Positions 6,875 to 40,861 of a DNA stretch of 56,191 nucleotides are shown here, piece by piece; positions within the stretch are counted from its first letter, which is position 1, and each line of letters opens with the position of its first letter. The notes below the pieces were generated by a model. It was not told the DNA's origin and ran no database searches. It saw only the letters and a list, made by a program, of their open reading frames with translations. Source of the DNA: Planctomycetota bacterium (lineage in GTDB: Bacteria; Planctomycetota; Phycisphaerae; SM23-33); contig JAXHSV010000001.1 in assembly GCA_034190305.1 (NCBI GenBank), positions 1 to 56,191 of the forward strand, in the 5' to 3' direction. A program made the position numbers and the translations under genes.

Positions 6875-7002
6875 AAATTCCATTAATATCCGCAAACTGC
6901 ATAAACAAAAAGAAATATCAAAGGAGAAAAAGTTCGCTCCGTCTTCGGACCATACCATCCTTCCTTGACAAATCATTGTTTCAGCAATACTTTCTCGCGG
7001 AC

Positions 7003-8043
7003 ATGAATACCCAAAGCGATATTTCTGTAGAGCGGGACCAAAGCGGGCGAGTTGTCCGCGTCGTCGGTCCGGGACTGGTGGACCTTCAGATTAACGGATA
7101 CGCAGGGACGAGTTTCAACCATCCGCCGGAGGACATCAACGTCGAAACCCTCCGGCCTGCTTTTGAGAAGATGCGCCGCCGGGGTGTGGTTGCGATTCTG
7201 GCGACTGTTGGAACCGCCCCGATGGATGAAATGCTCGCCGGTATCCGGCGCATCACTTCCTTGCGGAAGCAGGATTCGCTGCTCGCTTCGATGATCGCCG
7301 GTTTCCACATCGAGGGACCCATGATCAGTTCCGAGGACGGCCCGCGCGGGGCTCACGAAGCAGAATACATTATTGCCCCAAACGACGCGCCGGGATTCCT
7401 TGACGACCTCCAGGACGCTTCCGGCGGAACGATTCGCATCTTTACGCTCGCACCGGAACTGCCCGGCGCGATGGAACTTATCGCCAGGGCCGACGCCGCC
7501 GGTATCGTCGTGGCGCTGGGACACCTGAACGCCGACGCCGGGTCAATCGACCGGGCGGTCCGGGCAGGCGCCAAAATGTGCACACACCTGGGCAACGGTT
7601 CGCACGCGATGCTGCCTCGCCTGGATAACTATGTTCAGTATCAACTTGCCGACGACCGTCTTGCAGCCAGTTTCATCGCCGACGGGCATCATGTACCCTT
7701 CCCGACGCTGAAAAACTTTATTCGCGCCAAGACTCCTCAGCGGAGCGTGCTGATAACCGATGCGATCATAGCGGCGGACATGCCGCCGGGATATACCTAC
7801 GGCCACGGCAGGCGGGTTCGCAAGGTCGATCCGGACGGAGCAGTCCGCCTTCCGGGAACGCCCTACCTGGCCGGTTCGGCTCTGACGTTGGATATGGCCG
7901 TTGTGAACACATTCCGGAACTGCGACGTACCATTCGAGACGGCATGGGCAATGGCATCGACCCAACCGGCGGAACTGGTGGGCCTGCCCGTTCCGGAAAT
8001 GGTCCAGGTGGATGTTACCGACAAGGGTTTTACCAGACATTAA
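7003..8043 (+). CDS. N-acetylglucosamine-6-phosphate deacetylase-family amidohydrolase (paralog 1)
   Basis: LVDLQINGYAG (E. coli-type QxN in place of HxH), LAPELPGAMELI, VALGHLNA, CTHLGNGS, IADGHHV and LITDAI. Confidence 0.75.
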   Translation: MNTQSDISVERDQSGRVVRVVGPGLVDLQINGYAGTSFNHPPEDINVETLRPAFEKMRRRGVVAILATVGTAPMDEMLAGIRRITSLRKQDSLLASMIAGFHIEGPMISSEDGPRGAHEAEYIIAPNDAPGFLDDLQDASGGTIRIFTLAPELPGAMELIARADAAGIVVALGHLNADAGSIDRAVRAGAKMCTHLGNGSHAMLPRLDNYVQYQLADDRLAASFIADGHHVPFPTLKNFIRAKTPQRSVLITDAIIAADMPPGYTYGHGRRVRKVDPDGAVRLPGTPYLAGSALTLDMAVVNTFRNCDVPFETAWAMASTQPAELVGLPVPEMVQVDVTDKGFTRH

Positions 8044-8186: not shown

Positions 8187-9227
8187 ATGAATACAGATAA
8201 CGATATTTCGGTAATGCGGGACGAAAACGGACGAATTGTCGGCGCTTCGGGGTCCGGACTGGTGGACCTCCAGGTCAACGGATACGCCGGCGTGGATTTC
8301 AACGATTCGGATGTCGAACGCCTTACCCTTGATAAGGTCAGGGGCGCATTCGAGGCGATGCGGCGCTGCGGCGTGGTGAGCGTACTGGTGACAATCGTTA
8401 CCGGCCCGATAAAGGAGATGATCGCCCGGGTCGCCCGGATGGTCGAGTTGCAAAAGCAGGATGATCTGCTGAAAACAATGATTGCAGGCTTTCACATTGA
8501 AGGTCCGCTTATCAGCGGCGAGGACGGCCCGCGTGGTGCGCATCCCGCCGAAAACGTAATGACGCCGCAGGATACTCCAAACCTGCTGGACGAACTGCAA
8601 TCTGCCGCCGAAGGTGCGGTTCGCCTGCTCACCCTTGCGCCGGAACTGCCCGGCGCGATGGAACTGATCGCCAAGGCCGCTGCCGACGGTATCACCGTGG
8701 CGCTGGGCCATCATAACGCCGACGCCGAGACAATCGACCGGGCGGTCCGGGCCGGCGCTAGGATGTGCACGCATCTGGGAAACGGTTCGCACATGATGCT
8801 CCCCCGGCTGGACAATTACCTCCAGCGACAACTTGCCGACGACCGCCTGTCAGCCAGTTTCATCGCAGACGGACACCACATCCCCTTCACAACGCTGAAG
8901 AACTTCATCCGCGCCAAGACTCCTCGCCGAAGCATACTTGTAACCGATGCTATCATGGCGGCAAACATGCCGCCGGGACAGTATCAGGTCGGAGAAGTTA
9001 CCTGCCGGGTCGAACCGAACGGAATGGTCTGGAAACCGGGAGAAGCATTCCTGGTCGGTTCAGCCCTGACAATGGACCGAGCCGTACTGAACGTCGCCGG
9101 GCGCTGCGACGTATCGTTCGAGACGGCGTGGGCCATGGCATCGACCCAGCCGGCTGAACTGGTGGGCATGCCGAAACCGGCGAGAATCGAAGTGGACGTC
9201 ATCGACAACAACTTCGTCAGAAAATAA
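8187..9227 (+). CDS. N-acetylglucosamine-6-phosphate deacetylase-family amidohydrolase (paralog 2, tandem duplicate)
   Basis: Colinear with the 7003-8043 product over its full length (LVDLQVNGYAG, LAPELPGAMELI, CTHLGNGS, IADGHHIPF, LVTDAI). Confidence 0.75.
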   Translation: MNTDNDISVMRDENGRIVGASGSGLVDLQVNGYAGVDFNDSDVERLTLDKVRGAFEAMRRCGVVSVLVTIVTGPIKEMIARVARMVELQKQDDLLKTMIAGFHIEGPLISGEDGPRGAHPAENVMTPQDTPNLLDELQSAAEGAVRLLTLAPELPGAMELIAKAAADGITVALGHHNADAETIDRAVRAGARMCTHLGNGSHMMLPRLDNYLQRQLADDRLSASFIADGHHIPFTTLKNFIRAKTPRRSILVTDAIMAANMPPGQYQVGEVTCRVEPNGMVWKPGEAFLVGSALTMDRAVLNVAGRCDVSFETAWAMASTQPAELVGMPKPARIEVDVIDNNFVRK

Positions 9228-14936: not shown

Positions 14937-15173
14937 ATGAAGGCTCTTAGTGTAAAAGAAATACGAACGCGCCTGAGCAAGGTAATTCACGAGGCCGAAT
15001 GCGGCGAATCGACCACAATCACCCGCTATGGGAAACCGGTGGCTCGAATTGTCCCGGCCGATACTCATCGCCCCGCTTTTCCGGACCTGTCGGAATTCCG
15101 CGCTTCGATCAAACCTCGCGGCAAGACCCTGACCGACACGCTCCGTGAAATGCGCGAGGAGGAACGGCTTTGA
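14937..15173 (+). CDS. Phd/YefM-family antitoxin
   Basis: MKALSVKEIRTRLSKVIHEAECGESTTITRYGKPVARIVP. GGAGG RBS. 4-nt overlap with the downstream PIN gene. Confidence 0.85.
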   Translation: MKALSVKEIRTRLSKVIHEAECGESTTITRYGKPVARIVPADTHRPAFPDLSEFRASIKPRGKTLTDTLREMREEERL

Positions 15174-15589
15174 GGGCGTATGTCGACACCAGTATATTAA
15201 CCGGAGCGTACTGCGCCGAGCCGGGCAGCGCACGCTCGCAGAAAGTGTTGCAGCGTTACATGCCTGTAATCTCCCGCCTGACGTGCCTGGAGTTCAGTTC
15301 CTCGGTGGCTAGGAAACTTCGCATGAAAACCTTCTCAAAAACCGAGGCGCTCAGGGTGATTCACCAGTTTCATTCTCACCTCCAACAGGACATCTTCGAA
15401 CTCAAGCCGGTTCAGGACATGCACCTGGTATTGGCCGGCGAATGGATCGACTTGTTTGCGACCGGACTGCGCCCGTTGGATGCAATGCACCTCGCGATTG
15501 CCCATTCCAATAAACTGCTACTGGTTACAGCCGACGTATCGCTTGCCAAGTCGGCCCGGCAACTCGGCGCAGCAGTGGAACGAATCTGA
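15170..15589 (+). CDS. vapC: VapC-type PIN-domain toxin
   Basis: YVDTSIL (first acidic residue), LDAMHLAIA and LVTADVSLAKSA. TTG start overlapping the antitoxin stop. Confidence 0.8.
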   Translation: MRAYVDTSILTGAYCAEPGSARSQKVLQRYMPVISRLTCLEFSSSVARKLRMKTFSKTEALRVIHQFHSHLQQDIFELKPVQDMHLVLAGEWIDLFATGLRPLDAMHLAIAHSNKLLLVTADVSLAKSARQLGAAVERI

Positions 15590-15687: not shown

Positions 15688-15769
15688 CGACACAGAGACA
15701 CAGAGGAACAGAGACATAAAAACAGATTTGTCTTTTTTCTATTCTCTGAATCTCTGCGTCTCTGTGTCG
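15688..15769. repeat. Palindromic element, CAGAGA family (copy A1)
   Basis: Arms CGACACAGAGACACAGAGGAACAGAGA and TCTCTGAATCTCTGCGTCTCTGTGTCG around an AT-rich loop. Confidence 0.85.
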
Positions 15770-15867: not shown

Positions 15868-17616
15868 TCACGACAGGCCGTTCGGCGATTTTTCTTCCTC
15901 GCCTTCGCTTTTCGGTTTTTCCTGCATGGGGTACTTCAGACGGACGTGGTACATTCCACAGAGGCTTTTGACCAGCGACGTTTCGATGGCGTGGACCTCC
16001 CGCAGCGTCAATTCGCAGTCGTCCAGTTGCCCGTCCATAAGGCGCTTGGAAATCACGAAGTGGACCTGCGTTTCGATTCGCCCGGCGGTTGGTTCCGGTG
16101 TGGCGCGGATGGATGATTCAGCCGCGTCGGCGAGCATGAGAATGGCTGCCTCTTTCATTCGCGGCTTGGGACCCGGATAGCGGAACTCGACTTCATCGGG
16201 CGCACTTTCGCCGTTATCGGCTCGCTGCTCGGCTGCGGCGTGGTAGAAATACTCCACCAGCGTCGTACCGTGGTGCGTGGCGATGAATTCCCGAAGTACC
16301 CTTGGCAGACCATACTGCCTGGCCATTTCAACGCCGTCCTTGACGTGTCCCTTGATTACCAGCAGGCTCATTGCCGGCGAAAGTTTCTCGTGGCGCGAGG
16401 CGGAACCGGCCTGGTTCTCCACGAAATAATCGGGCTTGTTGATTTTTCCGACATCGTGGTAGTAGGCGCCGACCCTCGCCAGCAGACCCCGAGCGCCAAT
16501 GGCCTCGGCGGCGGATTCGCACATCGCCCCCAGCACGAGCGAGTGATTATACGTCCCCGGCGCTTCCAGCGCCAGGCGCTTCAGCAGCGGTTTGTTGGCG
16601 TCGCACCATTCCAGCAGCGTCAGCGATGTGGCGACGGAGAATACCCGTTCAATCAGAGGCAGAATGCCCTGTGTGAGGAACCCGCCGGCGATAGCTGCCC
16701 CTGCGGCATAACAGCCGTCCACGAGAACAAATCGCCCCGGCATGCCGGCGGCGGATTCAACCAGCCAGACGGTAATGAACACCACCACCGCAACCACGCC
16801 GCCGGTCTCGATGAGTTTGCTTCGAGTCCGAACCTCGTGCAACTGGAAAACGATCGTCGCCGCGGCCGACCAGAGCACCAACAGTCCCCCCACTCCCAGA
16901 CGAACCTGCAAGGCCGTCAGGATCACCAGCGCACCGGTAACCGCGAAGGCGAAACGCTGGTCGTAGGCGATGGCGAGCATGGTGGCGGCTACGAATATCC
17001 CGAAAACCGACAGGTACGGATTCATGCTTCCTGCGCCGACGACCACCCGACTCAACAACAGCACCAGAAAGATCAGCATCACAATGGCCAGGCCCCGCCA
17101 GTGGTTCTTCACGATCCGCGGGCTGTACTTGGCGACATATAACCCCAGCATGGCAACGACGCCGGCGATAATTCCCGCCCTGCCAAGGAATATCCAGAAC
17201 CGCCTTAGGGGCGAATCGGCGTTTCGCTGTTGCAGGAATGCCACGTGTTCAGCAGACAGGATTGCCACCTGTGCCTCTTTCAGTCCACCGTCGGCGGTCC
17301 CGGTTACAAGGAGTCTTCCTTTAGGGATGCTCTGTCCGACCGGCTGGGTCGCAGGAATTGTGGTCGGTCTTTCAGCATCGGCAAAGTGGAATTCAACACG
17401 GGCGTATGCGTCACGGGGAAGGTATCCGCCGAGGCGGTAGGGCGCAGGCTCCAGCGGGCAGGCGTCCATTATCAGCGCCGCGACAAACAGACCCGTCGCC
17501 AATAAGACCGACCCGACACCGCCGGCGTCGCGGAACCGCTGCCATCGGCCGGGTCCGGCCGGGGCGATCTTGCGAATCTCCCGCCGCTGACGATTTTTCT
17601 TCTTAAAAGGCCACAT
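15868..17616 (-). CDS. pgpH: 7TM-HD membrane phosphohydrolase (PgpH/YqfF family, c-di-AMP phosphodiesterase-like)
   Basis: Multi-TM central region, then an HD domain (GAYYHDVGK, ATHHGTTL). Lies downstream of phoH, as in many bacteria. Confidence 0.8.
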   Translation of the reverse strand: MWPFKKKNRQRREIRKIAPAGPGRWQRFRDAGGVGSVLLATGLFVAALIMDACPLEPAPYRLGGYLPRDAYARVEFHFADAERPTTIPATQPVGQSIPKGRLLVTGTADGGLKEAQVAILSAEHVAFLQQRNADSPLRRFWIFLGRAGIIAGVVAMLGLYVAKYSPRIVKNHWRGLAIVMLIFLVLLLSRVVVGAGSMNPYLSVFGIFVAATMLAIAYDQRFAFAVTGALVILTALQVRLGVGGLLVLWSAAATIVFQLHEVRTRSKLIETGGVVAVVVFITVWLVESAAGMPGRFVLVDGCYAAGAAIAGGFLTQGILPLIERVFSVATSLTLLEWCDANKPLLKRLALEAPGTYNHSLVLGAMCESAAEAIGARGLLARVGAYYHDVGKINKPDYFVENQAGSASRHEKLSPAMSLLVIKGHVKDGVEMARQYGLPRVLREFIATHHGTTLVEYFYHAAAEQRADNGESAPDEVEFRYPGPKPRMKEAAILMLADAAESSIRATPEPTAGRIETQVHFVISKRLMDGQLDDCELTLREVHAIETSLVKSLCGMYHVRLKYPMQEKPKSEGEEEKSPNGLS

Positions 17617-17624
17617 ACCAAATC

Positions 17625-17706
17625 AATAGTCAGTAATCGGTGGTTAGTAGTCAGATAAAAGATATTTTCTTCACCGGCTACCGGCTACCATCTACCGATT
17701 ACTATT
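17625..17706. repeat. Palindromic element, GGTAGTC/GGTAGCC heptad family (copy C1)
   Basis: Arms AATAGTCAGTAATCGGTGGTTAGTAGTCAG and CCGGCTACCGGCTACCATCTACCGATTACTATT. The right arm encodes the last codons and the stop of phoH. Confidence 0.75.
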
Positions 17707-18650: not shown

Positions 18651-18816
18651 GAGATTCAAAATCCGAAATACGAAGCACGAAGGCCGAAACAATATCGAAT
18701 GACCAAAATCCGAATGTTCAAAACCCTTTCTCGGCAGGTCTTGATGAAACTTTTTTGAACATTTGAATTTCGTATTTCGAATTTGTTTCGAGTTTCGGAT
18801 TTCGATATTCGGATTT
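18651..18816. repeat. Palindromic element, AATCCGAAA heptad family (copy B1)
   Basis: The left arm contains AAATCCGAAATACGAAG...CCGAAACAATATCGAA...CCGAATGTTCAAAA. The right arm is TTTTTTGAACATTTGAATTTCGTATTTCGAATTTGTTTCGAGTTTCGGATTTCGATATTCGGATTT. Confidence 0.85.
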
Positions 18817-19691: not shown

Positions 19692-19750
19692 GCGTATATT
19701 ACAGACTCTTATCGATCAAATTGGAAGCGCAAGTCAAAAAGGAACAAACA

Positions 19751-19836
19751 AAATGATAAATGCCAAATGACAAATGTCTTGCGAGGCTGTTTTCGCCCGT
19801 TTGGCGTTTGGCATTTAACGTTTTTCATTTATCATT
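19751..19836. repeat. Palindromic element, AAATGCC heptad family (copy D1)
   Basis: Arms AAATGATAAATGCCAAATGACAAATG and CGTTTGGCGTTTGGCATTTAACGTTTTTCATTTATCATT. The right arm supplies the last codons (NNDK) and the stop of uppS. Confidence 0.75.
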
Positions 19837-20598
19837 GTTTTCAAGCCCGCCGAAGCGACGATGGCGATCGGCGAATGCTCGAATTGCCTCGCCGAAGTCC
19901 TTTTCGTCGAAGTCCGGCCAGAGTGTATCGGTTACGTAAAACTCGGCGTAAGAGACCTGCCAGAGAAGGAAGTTACTTACCCTCATCTCCCCGGCCGTTC
20001 GAATCAGCAGGTCCGGGTCGGGCAGCCCGGCTGTATCCAGCGCATCGGAGATGACCCGCTCATCGACCTGTTCTGGTGTGATTTTTCCCTCGGCTGCGCG
20101 TTCGGAAATAGCGCGAACGGCGGCGGTCAGTTCCGCACGCCCGCCGTAATTCAATGCGAGGTTCAGCCACATTCCCGTATTGTCGCGCGAGACGTCCACC
20201 GAGTGGTCCAGTTCGGTCAAGACGCTTACGGGCAATCCTTCGCGCCGACCCAGGTGGCGGAGGCGAATATTGTGCTCCATTACCGTTACTCGCTCGCGGA
20301 TGAGGTATTCGGCGTAGAGCCCCATCAGGGCGTTGACCTCGTCGCGCGGGCGCCGCCAGTTCTCTATGGAAAATGAATAGAGCGTCAGCGCTTCGAGCCC
20401 AAGACGGGCCGCTTCGGTTACGATTTTGCGAACGACCTTTGCCCCCTCGGCGTGACCGGCAGGCCTAGGCAGGCCTCGATGGGACGCCCAACGACCGTTA
20501 CCGTCCATTATAATCGCCACGTGTCGTGGAAATCGCTCCCCCGGTATGCCAATCCCGGCCCGGGCGGCAGCAACAGATTGCGGAGAAATATCGACCAT
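19825..20598 (-). CDS. uppS: Isoprenyl transferase (undecaprenyl diphosphate synthase)
   Basis: HVAIIMDGNGRWA, FSIENWRRP, RTAGEMRVSNFLLWQ. Confidence 0.9.
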   Translation of the reverse strand: MVDISPQSVAAARAGIGIPGERFPRHVAIIMDGNGRWASHRGLPRPAGHAEGAKVVRKIVTEAARLGLEALTLYSFSIENWRRPRDEVNALMGLYAEYLIRERVTVMEHNIRLRHLGRREGLPVSVLTELDHSVDVSRDNTGMWLNLALNYGGRAELTAAVRAISERAAEGKITPEQVDERVISDALDTAGLPDPDLLIRTAGEMRVSNFLLWQVSYAEFYVTDTLWPDFDEKDFGEAIRAFADRHRRFGGLENNDK

Positions 20599-21999: not shown

Positions 22000-22079
22000 T
22001 CAAGAAATGTCTTATCCGAACGACAACGCAACCGCCTTTCTTAAATCAGTCGAGGACTTCTCGCAGGCTGATGCCCGAA

Positions 22080-22103
22080 GCCCAGCCATTGAAATGGCTG
22101 GGC
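22080..22103. repeat. GCCCAGCCATT hairpin (copy H1) in the divergent purA/phasin-like intergenic region
   Basis: GCCCAGCCATT-GA-AATGGCTGGGC. Confidence 0.7.
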
Positions 22104-22294
22104 CTGGAGCAAATAAACTTTTGGGGAATTCCCACTGACTCACACAATGTTTGACACCATAACCCTAACGGCGACGATACTATTAGTCGATTATGAGTAT
22201 TATTGTGGTACGATAGAGAGGGTTGGCGCCTGTCGTCGTACGATGACAGGTTGACGGGATGAAAGTTACTTTATCTGACTTGAAGGAGATAATT

Positions 22295-25649: not shown

Positions 25650-25671
25650 ACCGGCAAACTGACATACAAGA

Positions 25672-25787
25672 GGCCACAGAGACGCAGAGAGCGCAGAGAT
25701 TAACAAGACAAAAGAAACAAAATAACGCAGGGATTTTTGATTCTATCTAACTTATTTGTTCTCTGCGCTCTCTGTGCCTCTGCGGCC
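25672..25787. repeat. Palindromic element, CAGAGA family (copy A2)
   Basis: Arms GGCCACAGAGACGCAGAGAGCGCAGAGA and TCTCTGCGCTCTCTGTGCCTCTGCGGCC. Confidence 0.85.
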
Positions 25788-25800
25788 TATTTTCCCAAAC

Positions 25801-25875
25801 TGATCCCAGCGGGATTTGAACCCGCGTTGCCGGGATGAAAACCCGGTGTCCTGGACCTGGCTAGACGATGGGATC
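25801..25875 (-). tRNA. tRNA-Glu (anticodon UUC), no encoded CCA
   Basis: GATCCCATCGTCTAGCCAGGTCCAGGACACCGGGTTTTCATCCCGGCAACGCGGGTTCAAATCCCGCTGGGATCA folds as a cloverleaf. Anticodon loop TTTTCAT, T-loop GGTTCAAATCC. Confidence 0.9.
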
Positions 25876-25917
25876 GTGTACTAGCATTCAGCAATCAGCG
25901 GTCAGCAATCAAACTGC

Positions 25918-26085
25918 AAAATCCGAAATCCGAATTTCGAAATCCGAAACAATATCGAAACTCAAATGACTAAAAAATCCAAAACATAAACAAGCATAAA
26001 TACTTGCGATGTTCGATGTTTGGAACATTAGAAAATTCGAACTTCGAATTTGTTTCGTATTTCGTATTTCGATATTCGGATTTTT
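25918..26085. repeat. Palindromic element, AATCCGAAA heptad family (copy B2), between the two tRNA genes
   Basis: The left arm is AAAATCCGAAATCCGAATTTCGAAATCCGAAACAATATCGAAAC... The right arm is ...CGAATTTGTTTCGTATTTCGTATTTCGATATTCGGATTTTT. Shares CCGAAACAATATCGAA and TTCGATATTCGGATTT with B1. Confidence 0.85.
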
Positions 26086-26089
26086 CCTG

Positions 26090-26120
26090 CTACAAACTAC
26101 CGGCTGCCGGCTACCAATTC
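26090..26120. repeat. GGTAGCC heptad family arm (C2, left of tRNA-Lys)
   Basis: CTACAAACTACCGGCTGCCGGCTACCAATTC. Complementary to the arm at 26201-26243. Confidence 0.7.
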
Positions 26121-26122
26121 AA

Positions 26123-26195
26123 TGAGGGAGCTGGGACTCGAACCCAGAACCTACGCCTTAAAAGGGCGTTGCTCTGCCAGTTGAGCTACTCCCCC
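26123..26195 (-). tRNA. tRNA-Lys (anticodon UUU), no encoded CCA
   Basis: GGGGGAGTAGCTCAACTGGCAGAGCAACGCCCTTTTAAGGCGTAGGTTCTGGGTTCGAGTCCCAGCTCCCTCA. Anticodon loop CTTTTAA. 7-bp acceptor stem with one G-U pair. Confidence 0.9.
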
Positions 26196-26200
26196 AAGCC

Positions 26201-26243
26201 ACAGACAGTAATCAGTAGCCGGTGGTCAGTAGTCGGTAAAAAA
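26201..26243. repeat. GGTAGTC/GGTAGCC heptad family arm (C2, right of tRNA-Lys)
   Basis: ACAGACAGTAATCAGTAGCCGGTGGTCAGTAGTCGGTAAAAAA. Confidence 0.7.
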
Positions 26244-26290
26244 AGGAAGTAATCAGCAATCCGGTTTTTTGTCCGGTCCTTAGTTCCTGA

Positions 26291-26851
26291 CTACGATTCC
26301 ATTACCTCATGGTTTTTTTCATCGAGGATTTTGTCGATTTCTTTTACGTACTGGTCGGTCAGTCTTTGAACCTCCTCTTTACATTGTATCACGTCGTCTT
26401 CGGTAAGCAGATTTTCGTTTTCTTCCTTGTCGGCGGTTTTATTTGCTTCTCTTCTAACGTTGCGGACGGTTACGCGCGCCTGCTCGGCCATTTTCTTCAG
26501 CTGCGCCACCATGTGTTGTCGGCGTTCGCCGGACAGCGCGGGTATCGGCAAGCGGATGACCTTACCCGCCGTCGCAGGCGTGATACCCAGTTCGGAGGAC
26601 TGAATGGCCTTTTCGATCTCCTTTTTACTGGCGGGGTCGAACGGCTTGATGACGATCATATCCGGTTCGGGCACCGAAATAGACGCCAACTGCCGAAGGT
26701 CCGTCGGCGAACCGTAGTAATCGACTTTTATATGCTCGACCAGTCCCGCCGAGGCTCTGCCTGTGCGAATTACACGCAACTCGTCGCCGAAAAACTCGAC
26801 GGCCTTCTCCATCTTCTCTTCACATTCCAGCAAAATATCGTCTATCGGCAT
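26291..26851 (-). CDS. frr: Ribosome recycling factor
   Basis: LRVIRTGRASAGLVEHIKVDYYG and IRLPIPALSGERR. Confidence 0.92.
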   Translation of the reverse strand: MPIDDILLECEEKMEKAVEFFGDELRVIRTGRASAGLVEHIKVDYYGSPTDLRQLASISVPEPDMIVIKPFDPASKKEIEKAIQSSELGITPATAGKVIRLPIPALSGERRQHMVAQLKKMAEQARVTVRNVRREANKTADKEENENLLTEDDVIQCKEEVQRLTDQYVKEIDKILDEKNHEVMES

Positions 26852-26872
26852 GGCTATATCCCAGAAACAGAT

Positions 26873-26961
26873 TTAACCACAAAGGACACAAAGAACACAA
26901 AGAAAAGAAAGACTATTTTTGTTTTTTTACTCTTTGTGCCCTTTGTGTTCTTTGTGGTTAA
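26873..26961. repeat. Palindromic element, CAAAGA variant of the CAGAGA family (copy A')
   Basis: Arms TTAACCACAAAGGACACAAAGAACACAAAGA and CTCTTTGTGCCCTTTGTGTTCTTTGTGGTTAA. Lies in the pyrH-frr spacer. Confidence 0.85.
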
Positions 26962-26966
26962 TTTTT

Positions 26967-27716
26967 TCAGTTATCCGATACGATAGTTCCTGCGTTTTCA
27001 CCGGCGACGGCTGCGGCTAGGTTGCCCGGCTTGTCCATACGAAAAACGATAATCGGTATTGCCGCCTCCATGCACATCGAGACGGCAGACAGGTCCATCA
27101 CGCCCAACCGTCGGGCCAACACCTCGTCATAGGTTATGCGGTCGAACTTTTTTGCTTCCGGGTTGTCGGCTGGGTCGGAATCGAACACGCCATCGACCTT
27201 TGTAGCCTTCATCAGGACTTCAGCGCCGATTTCGCCCGCCCGCAATGCCGCACATGTATCGGTCGTGAAGAACGGGTTTCCCGTCCCGCCGGCGAGGATG
27301 ACGATCCGCCCGGCTTCCAGGTGCTCTATTGCCCGGCTGCGGGTGAACGGCTCACAGACATCGGCGGTAGGCCTGGCAGACATGACGCTCACTTTCACTC
27401 CGCGCCCGGACGGGTGGCCGTATTGCCGACCGGCCAGGGCGTCACCCAGAGCAAGGGCGTTCATTACCGTCGCCAGCATTCCCATCGCGTCGGCGGTCGG
27501 GCGGGCGATCAGGCCTGCTTCGGCGAGACTCCTGCCGCGAAAAATATTCCCGCCTCCGACGACAAGCCCAATCTGCACACCCATCTGACGGACCGGCAGC
27601 AACTCGGTAATGAAGGCCTCCAGCGCCGAAGGATCGATACCGAATCCGCCGGAGCCGCAAAACGCCTCCCCGGAAACCTTTATCAACACGCGATGATATG
27701 CCGCCTTGGGAATCAT
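26967..27716 (-). CDS. pyrH: UMP kinase
   Basis: YHRVLIKVSGEAF, VVGGGNIFRG, ILAGGTGNPFFTTDT. Confidence 0.92.
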   Translation of the reverse strand: MIPKAAYHRVLIKVSGEAFCGSGGFGIDPSALEAFITELLPVRQMGVQIGLVVGGGNIFRGRSLAEAGLIARPTADAMGMLATVMNALALGDALAGRQYGHPSGRGVKVSVMSARPTADVCEPFTRSRAIEHLEAGRIVILAGGTGNPFFTTDTCAALRAGEIGAEVLMKATKVDGVFDSDPADNPEAKKFDRITYDEVLARRLGVMDLSAVSMCMEAAIPIIVFRMDKPGNLAAAVAGENAGTIVSDN

Positions 27717-27740
27717 TGTTTTTCTAACAAAATAATTTTC

Positions 27741-27850
27741 GCCGCAGAGGCACAGAGAGCGCAGAGATGTAAAAAATTAGAGAAAAAATAAGAAACGAAA
27801 GTCTTTTTTTGATTCTATTTATTCTCTGCGTCCTCTGCGTCTCTGCGGCC
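27741..27850. repeat. Palindromic element, CAGAGA family (copy A3), in the tsf-pyrH spacer
   Basis: Arms GCCGCAGAGGCACAGAGAGCGCAGAGA and TCTCTGCGTCCTCTGCGTCTCTGCGGC. Confidence 0.85.
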
Positions 27851-27858: not shown

Positions 27859-28650
27859 TTACTGCCCGACCTGGAACCTGGCGAAGGTCGTTATCTTCGC
27901 AGCCCCCAGGATGTCCTTTACCTTTTTCTTCTCATCTCGGACGAAGGGCTGTTCCAACAGCGAGTTTGCAGCGAGGAACTTGTTTATTTTTCCGCCGACC
28001 ATTTTCTCGGCGATCTCTTTCGGTTTACCGGACTCGATTGCCTGCTCGGTTGCGATTCTCTTTTCTTTTTCGACAAGATCTGCCGGGACGTCGTCTTTGG
28101 TAAGCCCCATCGGATTGGCGAATGCGATGTGCATACACAGGTCGCTGAGGGTCTGGCTGTCGATTTCGCCGTCGATCCCCACCAATACACCGACTTTTCC
28201 GTTGTGGTGGGTGTATGAGCCGACCTTCGGCGCAGAGACCTTTACGCCTCGGACATATCGCATGTTCTCGCCGATCTTGTTGAAGCAGTCCTGGACGGCG
28301 GCGGTTATTTCATCTGTGGCCTGTATCTCGCCGTCGCCTTCTGCGCCGACGGCAAGGGCGGCGACATTTCCGACCATCGCCCTGAATTCGTCGTTGCGGG
28401 CGCAGAAATCCGTCTCGCAGACAACTTCGACCATGGCGGCCGAGCCGTTGGCTTGCCGGATGGCTACGAGTCCTTCTGCCGCTGTGCGGGCCGCCTTTGT
28501 TTCGGCGGCAGCCATTCCTTTCTTACGCAGCAGTTCAACGGCGGCTTCGACGTCTCCGCCGGTTTCCGCCAGCGCCTTTTTGCAGTCCATCATGCCCTGC
28601 CCGGTTTCGTCCCGCAGAGCCTTTACCATCTTCGCAGTAATTTCAGCCAT
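27859..28650 (-). CDS. tsf: Translation elongation factor Ts
   Basis: MAEITAKMVKALRDETGQGMMDCKKALAETGGDVEAAVELLRKKG. Confidence 0.92.
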   Translation of the reverse strand: MAEITAKMVKALRDETGQGMMDCKKALAETGGDVEAAVELLRKKGMAAAETKAARTAAEGLVAIRQANGSAAMVEVVCETDFCARNDEFRAMVGNVAALAVGAEGDGEIQATDEITAAVQDCFNKIGENMRYVRGVKVSAPKVGSYTHHNGKVGVLVGIDGEIDSQTLSDLCMHIAFANPMGLTKDDVPADLVEKEKRIATEQAIESGKPKEIAEKMVGGKINKFLAANSLLEQPFVRDEKKKVKDILGAAKITTFARFQVGQ

Positions 28651-28722: not shown

Positions 28723-29553
28723 TCAGGCGGATGCACTTTCGTTATCTTCAGTAGCCTGGGTTTCCGGAACCTTTGGTTCGACGGTTTCGGCAGGCGCGGG
28801 GGGTTCCGAAGCGGCAGGTTCTGAAACGGCAGGCTCCGAAGCGGCGGGTTGAACTTCGGTCTTGTCTGTCCGCCCGGCTTTGCCTAGCTCGATTGCGTCG
28901 CAGATTTCCTTTGTTACCAGCGTAATCGCCCGCATTGCATCGTCGTTTCCGGGGATGGGAATATCAACCATATCCGGATCGCTGTCGGTGTCTATCAGAG
29001 CCACTGTCGGGATTCCCAGTTTCCGCGCCTCCCGAAGCGCAATGGCCTCCCGACTGGCATCGATGACAAATACCGCCCCAGGGAGACGATTCATGTTCCG
29101 GACGCCTTCGAGGTTCCGTTTTATCTTGCGCATTTCCCGCCGAAGGCGAGCATCTTCCTTTTTACTGCGCTGCGCCATCAGGCCTTCGGCGTCAAGTTGT
29201 TCGAGTTTCTCCAGCCTCGTAAGGCGCGAACGGATAGTCTGTAAATTCGTCAGCGTTCCGCCCAGCCACCGTTCGTTCACATAGTGCATGCCAATCCGCA
29301 GCGCGCCGGATTCGACGCTTTTTCGCGCCTGACGCTTTGTGCCGACCAGCAGCACTTCCTTTCCTTCGCCGGCAAGACGGGTTAAAAACTTCTTCGCCGC
29401 AAGCAGGCCCTTTAGCGTCTCCTTCGGGTCGATGATGTGGATGGAATTACGCTTTGTCAGGATGTAAGGCTTCATCTTCGGGTTCCATCGGCTGACACGA
29501 TGCCCGAAGTGAATTCCGGCGTCAATCAGATTACGAATTATATTTTCCGTCAA
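28723..29553 (-). CDS. rpsB: 30S ribosomal protein S2 with a Pro/Ala/Glu-rich C-terminal extension
   Basis: LIDAGIHFGHRVSRWNPKMKPYI and GTKRQA. The tail is QPAASEPAVSEPAASEPPAPAE. Confidence 0.92.
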   Translation of the reverse strand: MTENIIRNLIDAGIHFGHRVSRWNPKMKPYILTKRNSIHIIDPKETLKGLLAAKKFLTRLAGEGKEVLLVGTKRQARKSVESGALRIGMHYVNERWLGGTLTNLQTIRSRLTRLEKLEQLDAEGLMAQRSKKEDARLRREMRKIKRNLEGVRNMNRLPGAVFVIDASREAIALREARKLGIPTVALIDTDSDPDMVDIPIPGNDDAMRAITLVTKEICDAIELGKAGRTDKTEVQPAASEPAVSEPAASEPPAPAETVEPKVPETQATEDNESASA

Positions 29554-29743: not shown

Positions 29744-29860
29744 TCTAAGCGGTCTCATGTAAGTCTTTTGGGGTGGAACAGCCTTTCCAGGCTGTATCGT
29801 CGTGAAGAACAGGCAAGAATGCCTGTTCCACCATGCAGAACTTATGTAAGACCGCTTAGA
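29744..29860. repeat. Nested composite palindrome in the long rpsB-upstream intergenic region
   Basis: Outer stem TCTAAGCGGTCT/AGACCGCTTAGA. Inner stem GGTGGAACAG/CTGTTCCACC. Local hairpins ACAGCCT-TTCC-AGGCTGT and GAACAGGCA-AGAA-TGCCTGTTC. Confidence 0.7.
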
Positions 29861-30146: not shown

Positions 30147-30581
30147 ATGGTTGCTCACGCATTACATAATAATCGTAATAATCGTTCAGGCCCGTTCGGC
30201 CTGGTGGTCAGCGGCGAGGCCGGTGAGTTTGCCGACGCCTTGTCCCTGATCGTAGGTCCGCGCTGGCTGGAAACCTACAAGGTCGATTCCGACGGCGAGG
30301 TAATACACCTTGTTCAGGCGGGCCTGATCGATGCGGTCGTGCTGGATGAAGCCGTCGCGGAAATCGACGTCCTTGCGCTGTTGCGTATGATACGCTTTTT
30401 GAACGAGTCCTTACTGGTGGTGCTTCTGGCGACGCGAGTCGATCGGCGGCGCCTCGCTGAAGCGCTGAGACTGGCTGCTTTCAGCGTCATCACGAAGCCG
30501 CTTGGGCTGGAAGAATTACTGGCGCAGATTCACCGGATGATGGTTCGCTTAGAGACCACCATCCGAACAGACAGATTGTAA
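30147..30581 (+). CDS. Stand-alone receiver (REC)-like domain protein with an atypical acidic pocket
   Basis: VVLDEAV (phospho-acceptor Asp position), VVLLAT (Thr) and ITKP (Lys) are conserved. The N-terminal DD pair is replaced by SGE. Confidence 0.55.
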   Translation: MVAHALHNNRNNRSGPFGLVVSGEAGEFADALSLIVGPRWLETYKVDSDGEVIHLVQAGLIDAVVLDEAVAEIDVLALLRMIRFLNESLLVVLLATRVDRRRLAEALRLAAFSVITKPLGLEELLAQIHRMMVRLETTIRTDRL

Positions 30582-30584: not shown

Positions 30585-30656
30585 GGTAGCCGGTAGTCAG
30601 TAGTCGGTAAAGGCGGGGTGTTCTTCCCGATTACTGACTAGCGACTACTAACTACC
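30585..30656. repeat. Palindromic element, GGTAGTC/GGTAGCC heptad family (copy C3), just upstream of groES
   Basis: Arms GGTAGCCGGTAGTCAGTAGTCGGTAA and CGATTACTGACTAGCGACTACTAACTACC. Confidence 0.8.
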
Positions 30657-30677: not shown

Positions 30678-31004
30678 ATGGCCAAGGCCAAGAGCAGCAG
30701 GAAAAAAGCAGCAAAGACAAAGATTCGCCCGCTGGGCGAGAAGGTTCTCATCAAGCGTCTGGAAGCGGAAACCAAGACCAGCGGAGGCATCGTACTTCCT
30801 GACACAGCCAAGGAAAAACCCCAGAAGGGCAAGGTTCTCGCACTGGGAGACGGTAAACTGCTCGACGACGGCAGCCGGGCGGATTTCCAGGTAAAGGTCG
30901 GACAGACCGTACTGTTCACTTCCTACGCCGGGACCGAAATAAAGGTCGATGGCGAAGAGGTGATGCTTATGGACGAAAGCGACATACTCGCAATTTTGGA
31001 TTAA
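30678..31004 (+). CDS. groES: Co-chaperonin GroES with a Lys-rich N-terminal extension
   Basis: IRPLGEKVLIKRLEAETKTSGGIVLPDTAKEKPQKGKVLALG, preceded by MAKAKSSRKKAAKTK. Strong AAAGGAG RBS before the ATG. Confidence 0.9.
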   Translation: MAKAKSSRKKAAKTKIRPLGEKVLIKRLEAETKTSGGIVLPDTAKEKPQKGKVLALGDGKLLDDGSRADFQVKVGQTVLFTSYAGTEIKVDGEEVMLMDESDILAILD

Positions 31005-31039: not shown

Positions 31040-31110
31040 GCGACACAGAAACGCAGAGGGACAAAGATAAAAAGAAATAAATCTTTTCTTTTCTCTGCGT
31101 CTCTGTGTCG
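31040..31110. repeat. Palindromic element, CAGAGA family (copy A4), inside the groES-groEL spacer
   Basis: Arms GCGACACAGAAACGCAGAGGGACAAAGA and TCTCTGCGTCTCTGTGTCG. Confidence 0.8.
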
Positions 31111-31167: not shown

Positions 31168-32799
31168 ATGGCGAAGAAAAAAATCACGTTTGACATTGAG
31201 GCCCGCGAGGCCATCCGTCAGGGCGTAAGAAAACTCGCCCAGGCGGTTAAAGTTACACTCGGACCGACGGGGCGCGTCGTGGTGCTGGAAAAATCCTTCG
31301 GCAGCCCGACCGTTACAAAGGATGGAGTTACGGTAGCCAAGGAAATCGAACTGGAAAACCCGGAAGAGAACATGGGCGCGCAAATGGTGCGCGAGGTCGC
31401 CTCCAAGACATCCAACGTCGCCGGCGACGGTACGACGACTGCGACAATCTACGCCGAAGCAATCTTCGAGGAAGGGCTCAAAAACGTAACAGCCGGCGCA
31501 AAAGCGATGCAGTTGAAACGAGGCATCGAAAAGGCGACAGACGCAATCGTGGCTGAACTTCAGCGGATGAGCAAACCGGTGAAGCGGTCCGAGGAGATTG
31601 CGCAAGTCGGAACCTGCGCAGCCAACCAGGACGCGGAAATCGGCAGGATGATAGCCGAGGCGATGGATAAGGTCGGCAAAGACGGCGTTATAACAGTCGA
31701 AGAAGGCAAAGGCCTGGAGACCAGCGTCGAACTGGTCGAGGGTATGCAGTTCGACAAGGGCTACATCTCACCGCACTTCGTTAACAAAATGGAGACGATG
31801 GAATGCGACCTGGAGAACCCGTTCATCCTGATTAACGAGAAGAAGATTTCAAACATTAAGGACCTGGTTCCGCTTCTGGAGAAGATTGCCCAGGCCGGCA
31901 GACCGCTTCTGATAGTGGCTGAAGACGTCGAGGGCGAGGCCCTGGCGACTCTGGTGGTCAACAAACTCCGAGGCACGCTCCAGTGCTGCACGGTCAAGGC
32001 CCCCGGATTCGGCGACCGCCGAAAGGAAATGCTCCGCGACATTGCCATTTTGACCGGCGGAAACGCCGTCATGGAAGACATGGGCGTGTCGCTGGAAAGC
32101 ATCCAGATGACCGATCTCGGCTCGGCCAAGCGGGTTCGAATCGACAAGGACAACACCACAATTATCGAAGGCGGCGGAAAGACCGCCGACATAAAGGGTC
32201 GAATCGAGCAGATTAGAAACGAAATCGAAGCCACAACCTCCGACTACGACCGTGAGAAACTCGAAGAGCGCCTGGCCAAACTGGCCGGCGGGGTCGCGCA
32301 GATTAACGTCGGAGCCGCCACCGAAGTGGAGATGAAAGAGAAGAAGGCCCGCGTCGAGGACGCCCTTCACGCCTGCCGAGCGGCTGTCGAAGAAGGTATC
32401 CTGCCCGGCGGCGGCGTAGCAGTGCTGCGGGCGAGAAAGACCCTTGATAAAGTCAAATGCAGCAGCGACGACGAAGCCACCGGCGTCGATATCGTCCGCC
32501 GGTCGCTGGTGATGCCGATTAAGCAGATCGCTATCAACTCAGGGCTCGATGGTTCCATCGTTGCAGCCAAGGTCGATGAATCCGACAAGGAAAACTTCGG
32601 ATACGACGCACTGGTCGGTAAATACTGTGACCTGGTCAAGGCCGGAGTCATCGTCCCGACCAAGGTCGAGCGAACCGCGCTTCAGAACGCAGCCTCGGTT
32701 GCCGGTCTGCTTCTGACGACCGACGCGATGGTCAGTGAAATCCCGGAAAAGAAGCCGCCTATGCCCCCGGGCGGCGGCGGAATGGAAGGGATGTATTAA
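31168..32799 (+). CDS. groEL: Chaperonin GroEL
   Basis: [44 protein letters not shown], and the C-terminal [11 protein letters not shown]. Confidence 0.95.
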
Positions 32800-32861: not shown

Positions 32862-32895
32862 AAGCCCAGCCATTCGAATGGCTGGGCTTTTTTTT
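32862..32895 (+). terminator. Rho-independent terminator after groEL (GCCCAGCCATT hairpin copy H2 plus a T8 run)
   Basis: AAGCCCAGCCATTCGAATGGCTGGGCTTTTTTTT. Preceded by a second hairpin, CACGGGCG-TCT-CGCCCGTG, at 32805-32823. Confidence 0.8.
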
Positions 32896-40538: not shown

Positions 40539-40668
40539 TGTTTGTTGTGCTCCTATAGAAACTAATGATAAATTAAATGAAAAATGTTAATAGATGCAAT
40601 ATAAGACACAACAAGCATCCGGTAATTAGCACTTAGCATTTTACGTTCAGCATTTTACGTTCGGTATT

Positions 40669-40756
40669 TTACTCTTCCTGAATATGTTTTCACGACATAA
40701 GGAATGTGATATTCCAGAGGATATCGGCTGGGGGGGGGCTTTTTGATGTTATTTGC
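40669..40756 (-). repeat. Orphan, decayed copy of the 3' end of the MBL/RNase Z-like gene (direct repeat of 44983-45066)
   Basis: Reads PADILWNITFLMS-stop-KHIQEE-stop, against PADIRQRVTFLMSWKHIQDE-stop in the intact gene. Contains a G9 run at 40730-40738. Confidence 0.8.
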
Positions 40757-40861
40757 TTGCCGCAAACTGATCGCCGAACAGGATCGCCCTTGACCTCCGA
40801 TTGATAAACCCATAGCGTTAATGTGCCGTATCCTTGTAACGTTTGTGCGAAAGAACGGACT

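Follow-up and report, generated by a model that had tools for sequence, protein, structure and literature searches.

The window analysed here is the whole stretch of 56,191 nucleotides (56 kb) of planctomycete DNA. It holds five intergenic hairpins, at 15688-15769, 25671-25788, 26873-26961, 27741-27849 and 31041-31110. A preliminary description of this DNA had reported them as CAGAGA/CAAAGA palindromes with periodic arms. They are indeed there, with ends shifted by 1 nt at most, and the periodicity is real: each arm has three units of the consensus C-R-C-R-R-A-G at 8- and 9-nt spacing. The step from unit to unit is 8 and then 9 nt, or 9 and 9 in the copy built from CACAAAG. The arms are 18-31 nt long and 85-94% complementary. 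The AT-rich loop that had also been described measures 27-60 nt between strictly paired stems, and its first half is A-rich, its second half T-rich.

The hairpin at 15688-15769 separates two convergent genes, a PIN-domain gene (15170-15589, +) and a 7TM-HD gene (15868-17616, -). Its arms are CGACACAGAGACACAGAG (15688-15705) and CTCTGCGTCTCTGTGTCG (15752-15769), the third unit being degenerate on each side. The hairpin at 25671-25788 lies between a CAAX-protease gene (24930 to about 25665, -) and tRNA-Glu (25801-25875, -); its 29-nt arms (25671-25699 and 25760-25788) are 90% complementary and enclose a loop of 60 nt. The CACAAAG variant, at 26873-26961, occupies the spacer between frr (26291-26851, -) and pyrH (26967-27716, -). 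Here the arms (26873-26903 and 26931-26961) are TTAACCACAAAGGACACAAAGAACACAAAGA and its complement, around a loop of 27 nt. The spacer from pyrH to tsf (27859-28650, -) is occupied by the hairpin at 27741-27849 (arms 27741-27767 and 27823-27849, loop 55 nt). The last, at 31041-31110, has arms at 31041-31058 and 31093-31110, together with a degenerate third unit, and is found between groES (30678-31004, +) and groEL (31168-32799, +); downstream of it stands a run of eight A, and no T-tract. RNA folding gives z-scores against shuffles of -7.6, -11.3, -10.2, -8.0 and -8.2 for the five elements in this order, a range of -7.6 to -11.3.

Chance is excluded as the source of these elements by the excess of unit pairs over shuffled sequence. 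The patterns CRCRRAG-N-CRCRRAG and CRCRRAG-NN-CRCRRAG match the window 7 and 8 times, where dinucleotide shuffles lead one to expect 0.03 and 0.03. All 15 matches (0.06 expected) fall inside the five elements, and none elsewhere in the window.

An assembly artefact, or a low-complexity one, can also be set aside. The elements at 25671-25788 and 31041-31110 recur with 100% identity in independent Logan assemblies (SRR24907504/5; the second in contig L284), and the same type of element is present in finished genomes of cultured strains. Cultured carriers are Gemmatirosa kalamazoonensis KBS708, Sphingopyxis indica MC4, Anabaena cylindrica PCC 7122 and Bacteroides finegoldii. The elements thus survive the artefact test proposed when they were first described. 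A Pfam scan of the annotated window genes, covering 56 kb of the genome, found no transposase and no RAYT.

Another six or seven hairpins in the window, missed in the preliminary description, have the same architecture built from other, 7-nt, units. One, at 17632-17703 between the 7TM-HD gene and phoH (both -), sets units CAGTAAT, CGGTGGT and TAGTAGT against ACCGGCT, ACCATCT and ACCGATT. Another, at 18656-18816 between phoH and cdsA (both -), has 7-nt units of CGAAAT type (AAATCCG and AAATACG, with TTTCGGA and TTTCGAT), and the one at 19747-19841, between cdsA and uppS (both -), has the 7-nt units AAATGAC and AAATGCC. Between tRNA-Glu and tRNA-Lys, a hairpin at 25918-26084 has 42-nt arms of AAATCCG and CGAAAT units; it is nested, being bracketed at 25883-25911 and about 26098-26125 by arrays of AGCAATC and CAGCGGT type. 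A degenerate companion at 26205-26290, between tRNA-Lys and frr, uses CAGTAAT, CAGTAGC, CGGTGGT and CAGTAGT. Finally, a hairpin at 30586-30648 (fold z -6.6), between a response-regulator gene (30147-30581, +) and groES (+), uses GGTAGCC, GGTAGTC and AGTAGTC. These heptamer hairpins resemble the STRR repeats of cyanobacteria, and head-to-tail 7-nt units of STRR type are present in the companions that begin at 17632, 18656, 19747, 25918 and 30586.

A family across phyla, plasmids and phages

The five window elements are members of a large, apparently unnamed family of intergenic hairpin repeats of about 60-200 bp. Its layout runs from an A-rich flank through TTCAC and three units to a variable loop of 2-129 nt and then to the mirrored arm. 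A fixed 18-position pattern matches at least 120 stretches in a viral collection, many of them with a mirrored arm 50-130 nt off, and the family set now includes at least 88 non-redundant hairpins, which agree in this A-rich flank, the TTCAC end and the three units. A weak richness in A marks the upstream flank and one in T the downstream flank, the outer ends read TTCAC or TTCGC, and on the purine arm the bases C0, C2, A5 and G6 of the unit are invariant. Among the matches listed, the 8,9 spacing is exact in 84 of 175 arms, a fraction to be read with the search in mind, since a fixed-gap pattern run on a viral collection biases the sample towards that spacing. Several arm variants can stand side by side in one contig.

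The carriers are diverse. In plasmid records they include Bacteroides finegoldii, Gemmatirosa, Nostocales, Gloeocapsa, Sphingomonadaceae and Thiodictyon, and the copies lie in unannotated intergenic DNA in every case. A gammaproteobacterial MAG has a copy, and true tailed phages (uncultivated, with terminase, portal, major head and tail genes) have several per compact genome. Five phyla at the least are represented, by Planctomycetota-like, Bacteroidota, Cyanobacteriota, Gemmatimonadota and Pseudomonadota DNA, and the family architecture is conserved across distant bacteria, plasmids and tailed phages. The E. coli genomes searched gave no family match, and the CGCAGAG consensus is without a match in cultured phages. 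The CACAGAG consensus, searched against phages, matched three unverified faecal-virome scaffolds and, weakly and in part (23-29 nt), sequences within genes of cultured Campylobacter and Enterobacteria phages.

The preliminary description could assign the elements to no named repeat family, and this agrees with the present searches, in which no Rfam match and no paper with the arm sequences was found. At the gathering threshold of Rfam 15, two tRNAs only pass in the window; at a permissive threshold, the sub-threshold matches are to generic long-hairpin (miRNA precursor) models. One of the small dispersed repeat families of cyanobacteria (Elhai et al., 2008) may overlap with this one.

Symmetry, homogenisation and position

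All copies had been said to share one absolute orientation. This is a consequence of palindromic symmetry, the elements being 68-79% identical to their own reverse complements. A CAGAG-type left arm, followed by a loop that is first A-rich and then T-rich, reads alike on both strands, and the shared orientation is therefore automatic. Judged instead by the asymmetries of their arms, the hairpins at 25671-25788 and 27741-27849 are mutually inverted: the right arm of the former, reverse-complemented, equals the left arm of the latter at 27 of 27 nt.

The preliminary description had further argued, from compensatory changes, that the hairpin is the selected feature, and had proposed a test of arm covariation. 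Over 43 family members the arms do covary. Cells are paired in 88.1% of cases, against 82.8% in shuffles; double-sided changes number 116, against 57; and not one of 500 shuffles reaches the observed covariation values. The step from covariation to selection is less secure, since the A/G variants are concerted in all six units. The units within one arm carry the same variant in 72% of cases, where 28% is expected. Units are, in short, homogenised within an element.

Selection on a folded transcript might leave a mark on one strand. Mismatches on the sense strand, counted family-wide, show no preference (46 G.U and 45 A.C). Folding of the window on both strands gives four elements for a strand bias, five against and one tie, and the composition of sense 5' arms and 3' arms differs at no position at p<0.01. 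Concerted units without strand bias fit copying or homogenisation at the DNA level as well as they fit selection on a folded strand; with strand-neutral mismatches and sense arms that are alike, selection on the transcript fold is a candidate only. Loops, too, are related by neighbourhood, with a similarity of 0.31 within a contig and 0.17 between contigs (p ~1e-14), and in one phage seven copies are alike both in the asymmetry of their arms and in the direction in which it points.

Where the elements sit is also informative. Of the 60 copies among the matches listed that could be classified by their neighbours, 59 are flanked by genes of one direction and none by divergent genes; most of these figures come from phage contigs, in which genes usually run the same way. 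Distances to the stop and start codons are a few to tens of nt, and the median copy (again among the matches listed) begins about 23 nt past a stop codon and ends about 29 nt ahead of the next start. In the window, 10 of about 12 periodic hairpins are between co-directional genes and one between convergent genes, and the seven divergent spacers have none. Such positions, in short co-directional spacers, imply that the element is co-transcribed with its neighbours.

Gain and loss were followed in distant relatives of the window and in related phage contigs. A check for empty spacers had been suggested in the preliminary description: in three distant relatives the pyrH-frr spacer is 0-87 nt long and free of the element, and in a fourth it is 203 nt long, with no hairpin. 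The window spacers, less their elements, would measure 33 and 26 nt. Among the matches listed in searches with PyrH, which conserved peptides dominated, none exceeded 56% identity, and exact-protein matches came from the same population only. Related phage contigs have other palindromes, or other arm variants, at the same site; between contigs L166 and L113 the whole spacer is replaced, rather than cleanly interrupted by an insertion. The element is gained and lost: relatives lack it in the corresponding spacers, and in close relatives one version stands in place of another at a given site.

Copies also nest. In contigs L181, L089, L290 and L291 the element sits inside itself and around other palindromes, and CGTC-tagged hairpins are found only as separate elements inside loops (L181). 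The loop in L106 has a possible ORF of about 70 amino acids. At the borders, direct repeats in the flanks reach a mean best length of 3.31 nt, and in shifted controls 3.13 and 2.95 nt; a 2-bp palindromic target-site duplication may be present there.

Likely origin and possible roles

Several known systems invite comparison. REP, BIME and REPIN sequences of Enterobacteria and Pseudomonas, mobilised by RAYT, are likewise short imperfect palindromes, extragenic and in many copies. They too are frequent within operons and at 3' ends, form hairpins in mRNA, and are nested or clustered with other palindromes. The usual description of a REP (an imperfect palindrome of 20-40 bp, extragenic and multicopy) covers the window elements, with arms of 18-31 nt and five copies in 56 kb, all intergenic. 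One end of REP and REPIN sequences is marked by a conserved tetranucleotide, GTAG or CGTC (PMC3733652). The CRCRRAG family lacks this tag, and has TTCAC or TTCGC at the outer end. Its arms are three tandem units, not unique sequence; it is found in at least five phyla and in phages, whereas REP sequences are lineage-specific; and RAYT, the cognate Y1 transposase whose gene usually has REPs on its flanks, is absent among the Pfam-scanned genes of the window (56 kb of genome).

MITEs are like the family in that a short core without coding function is enclosed by terminal inverted repeats, but target-site duplications give no signal over shifted controls in the family. STRR repeats and the GGGAATC arrays of Xanthomonas are tandem 7-nt units in intergenic DNA, in Xanthomonas with inverted pairs able to form stem-loops, and the window companions use units also present in Nostoc spacers (actgac, ttgttag; PMC2408588). 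The CRCRRAG family differs in that its units are always three, their step is 8/9 nt and the outer end is conserved, in place of a variable 7-nt array. It is neither G-rich nor quadruplex-forming, and occurs far beyond cyanobacteria and xanthomonads.

The Correia or NEMIS elements of Neisseria, ERIC of enterobacteria, and BOX and RUP of pneumococcus are likewise palindromic and non-autonomous, and are inserted in spacers as stretches of 60-200 bp. They are co-transcribed with their neighbours, and several are substrates of RNase III or RNase E, or modulate mRNA stability. These are conserved internally, have duplicated target sites (TA for Correia) and keep to a narrow set of hosts, whereas the CRCRRAG family is conserved in its arms only, has no detected duplication, and has a very wide host range. 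The foldback (FB) transposons of Drosophila, with long inverted termini of short tandem subrepeats and a variable or missing centre, belong to eukaryotes, measure kilobases and in some copies have a known transposase; here the likeness is of architecture only. A CRISPR array, with direct repeats of 24-48 nt and unique spacers of similar length, does not fit, as the repeats are inverted and the copies dispersed, one per spacer.

The reading that we favour, at about even confidence, is that the five elements belong to a palindromic, non-coding family of dispersed repeats, of the general REP/MITE/STRR type. Each copy is two inverted arms of about 26-31 bp, with an outer TTCAC-like end and three CRCRRAG units at steps of 8 and 9 nt. 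The DNA itself would be copied, or inserted without target-site duplication, plausibly through single-strand (hairpin) intermediates; slippage and templated correction from arm to arm would keep them symmetric. Transcribed within an operon, the element would fold as a helix of about 30 bp broken by one or two small internal loops. Its likeliest effect in cis would be that of an intercistronic hairpin of the REP, ERIC or Correia type, serving as a barrier to 3'-5' exonucleases, as a processing site for a double-strand RNase (RNase III-type), or as both. It would then uncouple the stability of neighbouring cistrons, and would not be an intrinsic terminator.

Against this dispersed-repeat reading count the lack of a mobilising enzyme among the window genes and the lack of a target-site duplication. 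REP-like elements are, moreover, normally lineage-specific. It is unusual among them that the unit and its 8/9 spacing should be conserved over several phyla, a point that also weighs against the reading and hints at a conserved interacting machine outside it.

The hairpins could of course have no role. Replication slippage might lengthen short tandem arrays (7-9 nt) in AT-rich spacers, and template switching by fold-back (quasi-palindrome correction) might turn them into inverted pairs, the products persisting where harmless; we judge this account unlikely, though a serious minority view. It would fit the presence of many unit families with one architecture in the same genomes, as well as the concerted units, the mismatches without strand bias and the missing duplication. 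Heptamer repeats are over-represented in bacteria: Xanthomonas has 70-75 GGGAATC arrays as convergent (inverted) pairs, of unknown function (Rehm et al., 2015, PMC4692102), and Nostoc operon spacers hold ttgttag, ttgtcag and actgac arrays (PMC2408588). But slippage alone predicts a variable number of units and a constant period, whereas the CRCRRAG family keeps three units, an 8-then-9 step and a TTCAC end across phyla and phages. One unit sequence recurs from Bacteroides to cyanobacteria, and compact phage genomes have several copies each, which also count against this account.

Alternatively, the arms may be terminal inverted repeats, or the hairpin substrate, of a putative mobile element, with the DNA between them as cargo. 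The three units per arm would then be putative transposase or recombinase sites, perhaps for an HUH/RAYT-like single-strand enzyme that leaves no duplication. This reading is distinctly unlikely. The conserved outer end and the three repeated sites per arm suit it, as do the loops of 2 nt to about 300 nt with the possible ORF in L106, the nesting around REP-like hairpins, the relatedness of loops within a contig, the seven phage copies alike in asymmetry and orientation, and the spread over plasmids and phages. Yet no candidate enzyme lies beside any copy examined, no duplication is seen, the replacement of the whole spacer between L166 and L113 is no clean insertion, and arm variants that coexist in one contig would need several specificities.

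A long shot is that the hairpin is a portable, orientation-independent module for transcriptional pausing or attenuation, read by a universally conserved machine for which RNA polymerase would be the most specific candidate. The elemental pause consensus is G-11 G-10 T-3 G-2 Y-1 G+1 (PMC6062546), and is reported active on RNA polymerases from bacteria to mammals (PMC6336406). The descending arm, CTCTGYG at 8-nt steps, could be read as a tandem of this consensus (G-10 ... T-3 G-2 Y-1 G+1), and the upper stem, folded about 10-12 nt behind each site, would stabilise the pause in a hairpin-stabilised geometry. By our own derivation, the invariant unit bases (CT..G.G on the other arm) correspond to the G's of the consensus, and with a step of 8 nt a G falls at -10. 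Such a module would explain the conservation of unit and spacing across phyla and in phages, which ordinary REP families do not show. The argument is at present one of sequence coincidence; the companion heptamer families lack the motif, yet share architecture and location. One phage lineage has CTCTGGG in seven copies, which breaks Y-1, and the CTTCGYG and CTCCGYG variants lack T-3. If the idea were true, bacteria of many phyla and their phages would hold polymerase at cistron boundaries with the same cassette, for example to re-couple translation or to gate access by Rho or RNase.

That the elements are bidirectional intrinsic (Rho-independent) terminators is very improbable: stable stems, flanks weakly A-rich upstream and T-rich downstream, and sites 3' of stop codons are in keeping with it, but a terminator is a G+C-rich stem with a 3-8 nt loop and a T-tract 0-2 nt from the stem, and the elements fail on these points, having no T-tract at the stem and loops (27-60 nt in the window) far too long, being passed over by a canonical terminator scan that found no excess, and lying within obligate operons (groES-groEL, phage late genes), while canonical terminators occur close by, as a hairpin with T8 after groEL at 32862-32889 and directly before the Bacteroides element.

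The roles of dispersed palindromes have been hard to generalise, in part because REP, ERIC, Correia and STRR palindromes are usually private to one genus. The CRCRRAG hairpin keeps its unit, its three-plus-three layout and its 8/9-nt step over at least five phyla and in the spacers of phage late genes. If a shared interacting machine is responsible, be it RNA polymerase, a single-strand DNA enzyme or a double-strand RNase, the hairpin would be a ready means of testing intercistronic control in bacteria that are not model organisms. If horizontal spread is responsible, it would be an unusually promiscuous non-autonomous element, moving via phages and plasmids.

The hairpins also have a practical side. 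They break short-read assemblies, Logan contigs terminating within them, and they seed spurious ORF calls.

Hairpins in a housekeeping chromosome

The window does contain all five of the palindromes first read from it. They lie at 15688-15769 (in a convergent spacer), 25671-25788 (between genes for tRNA-Glu and a CAAX protease), 26873-26961 (pyrH/frr), 27741-27849 (tsf/pyrH) and 31041-31110 (groES/groEL). Each arm carries, as proposed, three periodic units, here given the consensus C-R-C-R-R-A-G (R = A or G), plus an outer few bases. The units are CACAGAG and CGCAGAG, with CACAAAG in the copy at 26873-26961; successive units are stepped by 8 and then 9 nt (9 and 9 in the CACAAAG copy). In the loops, an A-rich part precedes a T-rich part. 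A scan of the whole window with two-unit patterns gave 7 + 8 matches, all confined to the five elements, against 0.03 + 0.03 expected from dinucleotide shuffles. Folded as RNA, the elements reach -35 to -66 kcal/mol (z-scores -7.6 to -11.3).

Repeats of this kind might, of course, be artefacts of assembly. They are real: independent Logan assemblies (SRR24907504/5) span two of the elements end to end with 100% identity to the window. Other Logan contigs terminate within 26873-26961, which marks these hairpins as sequence on which assemblies tend to break.

The copies had also been said to share one absolute orientation. This is automatic, because the reverse complement of an element laid out as CAGAG arm, A-rich, T-rich, CTCTG arm is a string of the same type. 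Each window element matches its own reverse complement at 68-79% identity, and the small asymmetries among them are mutually inconsistent. Thus, the left arm of 27741-27849 matches the right arm of 25671-25788 in reverse complement (27 of 27 nt), yet the two have TTTTTGATTCTAT in common in the right half of the loop.

The gene content is that of an ordinary housekeeping chromosome (pfk, miaA, pheT, phoH, cdsA, uppS, purA, rpsB-tsf-pyrH-frr, two tRNAs, groES-groEL), with no transposase among the window genes. PyrH is at most 56% identical to any match in the genome collection, where the best come from Tepidisphaerales, Pirellulales and Phycisphaeraceae MAGs; the source is probably a planctomycete with no near relative among sequenced genomes.

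The family in other genomes

A viral collection searched with the fixed pattern CAGAGR NN CAGAGR NNN CAGAGR gave at least 120 matches, many loci having a + and a - match separated by 50-130 nt. Extraction from the window and from every fetched locus gave 88 non-redundant hairpins, from contigs with a G+C content of 0.48-0.72. Their consensus arm is an A-rich flank, T-T-C-A-C, CRCAGAG, a GC spacer, RCAGAG, an RNC spacer, RCAGAG and A-A. Three units are found in 116 of 175 arms and the exact 8,9 spacing in 84, a spacing towards which the search pattern biases the sample; the window copies, chosen otherwise, have it as well. Unit variants are CACAGAG, CGCAGAG, CACGGAG, CGCGGAG, CACGAAG, CGCGAAG, CACAAAG and CGCAAAG, several of which can occur on a single contig. 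Loops measure 2-129 nt and show no conservation from one contig to another.

Plasmid BLAST found hosts in Sphingopyxis, Novosphingobium, Sphingobium, Sphingomonas, Nostoc, Calothrix, Sphaerospermopsis, Gloeocapsa and Thiodictyon, and a second query added Bacteroides finegoldii, Gemmatirosa, Anabaena and Scytonema. The plasmid matches are in every case unannotated intergenic DNA; those inspected in Nostocales are single arms. One gammaproteobacterial MAG has one copy, and E. coli genomes have none. Cultured phages gave no match to the CGCAGAG consensus; matches to the CACAGAG consensus were limited to three unverified scaffolds from faecal viromes and to weak, partial hits that lie within genes of cultured Campylobacter and Enterobacteria phages. 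Three phage loci (L092, L104 and L121, with genes for terminase, portal, major head and tail proteins) each have 4-8 elements placed between their late genes, such as immediately after the portal and major-head genes. On the Thiodictyon plasmid pTs485 (L203, 1500-1570) the arm order is reversed, CTCTGCG before CGCAGAG, with the TCAC ends toward the loop, and the whole lies within a larger palindrome. Either two elements abut here, or the form is inside-out.

At the level of class, it is well supported that the hairpin is of the REP/MITE/STRR kind, a non-coding palindrome repeated at dispersed sites. The preliminary description could assign it to no named family, and the three-plus-three CRCRRAG hairpin is indeed undescribed in Rfam or, by arm sequence, in the literature, although it may overlap a cyanobacterial small dispersed repeat (Elhai et al., 2008). 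The nearest described phenomena are the STRR/tandem heptamers of cyanobacterial spacers (PMC2408588) and the convergent GGGAATC arrays of Xanthomonas (PMC4692102), both of unknown function. Short-unit vocabularies are able to cross phyla, as TAACTGA direct repeats common to Beggiatoaceae, cyanobacteria and Bacteroidetes show (PMC4679880).

Pairing, turnover and possible role

Arm covariation, suggested earlier as a test, was scored for 43 family members reduced to their arms and a dummy loop, against 500 shuffles. The score was 0.245 (0.145 in shuffles), 116 cells were changed on both sides (57 in shuffles), and 88.1% of cells were paired (82.8% in shuffles), a fraction inflated by the choice of the sample as inverted repeats. 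No shuffle attained the observed pairing, double-change or covariation values; slid controls paired at 32-58%. The three R positions alternate between A-U and G-C (24:18, 17:16 and 19:16) and, by an independent count, pair at 86-98% against 48-72% expected. Inter-unit spacer columns frequently lack a pair (in 14, 18 and 29 of the 43 members), so the helix is three 7-8-bp blocks parted by small internal loops.

Thus, the arms covary, but the "compensatory changes" first reported are not independent compensatory substitutions. They are concerted, since units of one arm have the same variant in 72% of cases, against 28% expected.

A transition mismatch that reads G.U on one strand reads A.C on its complement. 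Sense strands of the family have 46 G.U and 45 A.C mismatches, the transcribed strand in the window folds better in four elements, worse in five and equally in one, and no difference in composition was found between sense 5' and 3' arms. These comparisons give no evidence for selection specifically on the mRNA-strand fold; the symmetry is such as DNA-level copying would give. In the phage lineage L104/L114, an identical G.G mismatch in constant orientation in 7 copies shows descent from one master copy. Neutral slippage with correction of the palindrome is a rather unlikely account of the elements.

It is well supported that elements are gained and lost in spacers, and that they are placed for co-transcription. 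With the elements subtracted, the tsf/pyrH and pyrH/frr spacers are 33 and 26 nt. Whether orthologous spacers are empty had been raised as a check, and in distant relatives the pyrH/frr spacer does lack the element: it is empty in L012 (87 nt), L015 (34 nt) and L049 (0 nt), and without a hairpin in L001 (203 nt). In L006 it holds a different heptamer hairpin. The rpsB/tsf spacer of L049, a Pirellulales MAG, has one CGAAAT hairpin (3743-3837).

Closely related phage contigs differ in content at the same site. The position that carries a CGCAGAG element in L166 is occupied in L113 by another palindrome. The short CGCAGAG element of L157 has a TTCACC end and a loop unrelated to that of L106, which at this site (2565-2952) has CACAGAG arms ~300 nt apart around a possible ~70-codon ORF. 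The right arm has decayed in L129, L291 has an element within an element, and L089 and L290 have elements enclosing other hairpins. In L181 (960-1158, 3025-3274 and 4419-4621) each CRCRRAG loop holds a CGTC-tagged REP-like hairpin (CGTCGCCCCAGCGAAAGCTGGGGC...), two palindromic repeat kinds being joined in fixed order three times. Loop similarity has a median of 0.31 within contigs and 0.17 between them (p ~1e-14), a difference to which low-complexity composition contributes. Target-site duplications are not detectable at elements; that these are the ends of a mobile element that leaves no duplication is unlikely.

Genes at the fetched loci were called with a simple purpose-written caller, checked on the window. 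Among 60 classifiable copies, 59 lie between co-directional genes, one between convergent and none between divergent genes, although phage contigs, in which co-directional genes are usual anyway, make up most of these loci. The window's own hairpins point the same way, favoring co-directional spacers; none of its seven divergent, promoter-bearing spacers has a periodic-arm hairpin. The median gap is 23 nt after the upstream stop and 29 nt before the following start.

From this position, from the length of ~30 bp with small internal loops, from tolerance in obligate and phage late operons, and from the lack of terminator features, we infer as the favored mode of action a REP/ERIC/Correia-like intercistronic hairpin. 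Such a hairpin would block exonucleases or offer a site to a double-strand RNase. A pause module is quite improbable. The descending arm, CTCTGYG at 8-nt steps, fits the extended pause consensus G-11 G-10 T-3 G-2 Y-1 G+1 (PMC6062546); the elemental pause consensus is reported to be universal (PMC6336406), and pausing would account for conservation across phyla. However, the fit is so far a coincidence of sequence, and leaves the heptamer companions uncovered. Least probable is a terminator, whose features the CRCRRAG elements lack; the genome uses ordinary terminators at operon ends, as the canonical hairpin + T8 after groEL (32862-32889) indicates.

Companion hairpins and other repeats

Overlooked at first, hairpins of like design with 7-nt units are carried by almost every other co-directional spacer from 17.6 to 31.2 kb. 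These are of the CAGTAGT type (17632-17703, and a degenerate one at 26205-26290), the CGAAAT type (18656-18816 and 25918-26084), AAATGAC (19747-19841) and GGTAGTC (30586-30648). The window has 5 CRCRRAG and 6-7 heptamer hairpins in 56 kb; ~2.0 Mb from 160 PyrH loci, fetched for an unrelated reason, has 2 and about a dozen. CGGTAGC units occur beside CAGTAGT in companion arms, and two companion unit types are also found in operon spacers of Nostoc PCC 7120 (PMC2408588). Between two tRNA genes, arrays of AGCAATC/CAGCGGT and CAGCCGG/TAGCCGG type (25883-25911 and ~26098-26125) flank an AAATCCG hairpin; here, a tandem-armed palindrome appears to be nested in a degenerate second palindrome.

A hairpin core (GCCCAGCCATT..AATGGCTGGGC) is present twice, at 32862-32889 with a T8 tail, as the textbook terminator after groEL, and at 22072-22111 without a T-tract, in the purA/phasin divergent spacer. 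It may represent a further family of small repeats. Upstream of rpsB, the 593-nt divergent spacer holds a 117-nt palindrome (29744-29860) with 52-nt arms, 73% complementary and without periodic units. This palindrome folds as a long stem in which there are two internal hairpins (ACAGCC..GGCTGT and ACAGGC..GCCTGT), and nothing in Rfam matches it.

Tandem repeats include a perfect 10-nt unit, CTATAAGAAT x 4.1 (51810-51850), shortly downstream of a gene ending at 51783; a 14-nt unit, AGCATTTTACGTTC x 2.7 (40635-40672), in the divergent spacer 40539-40822; and a 15-nt unit, GGTTCCGAAGCGGCA x 3.3 (28802-28850), within the 3' end of rpsB, so that a C-terminal extension of ribosomal protein S2 would contain a repeated pentapeptide. 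The adjacent genes 6976-8043 and 8187-9227, similar in size and with long near-identical stretches (e.g., ~7441-7570 and 8581-8710), appear to be paralogues; the first has a weak amidohydrolase match.
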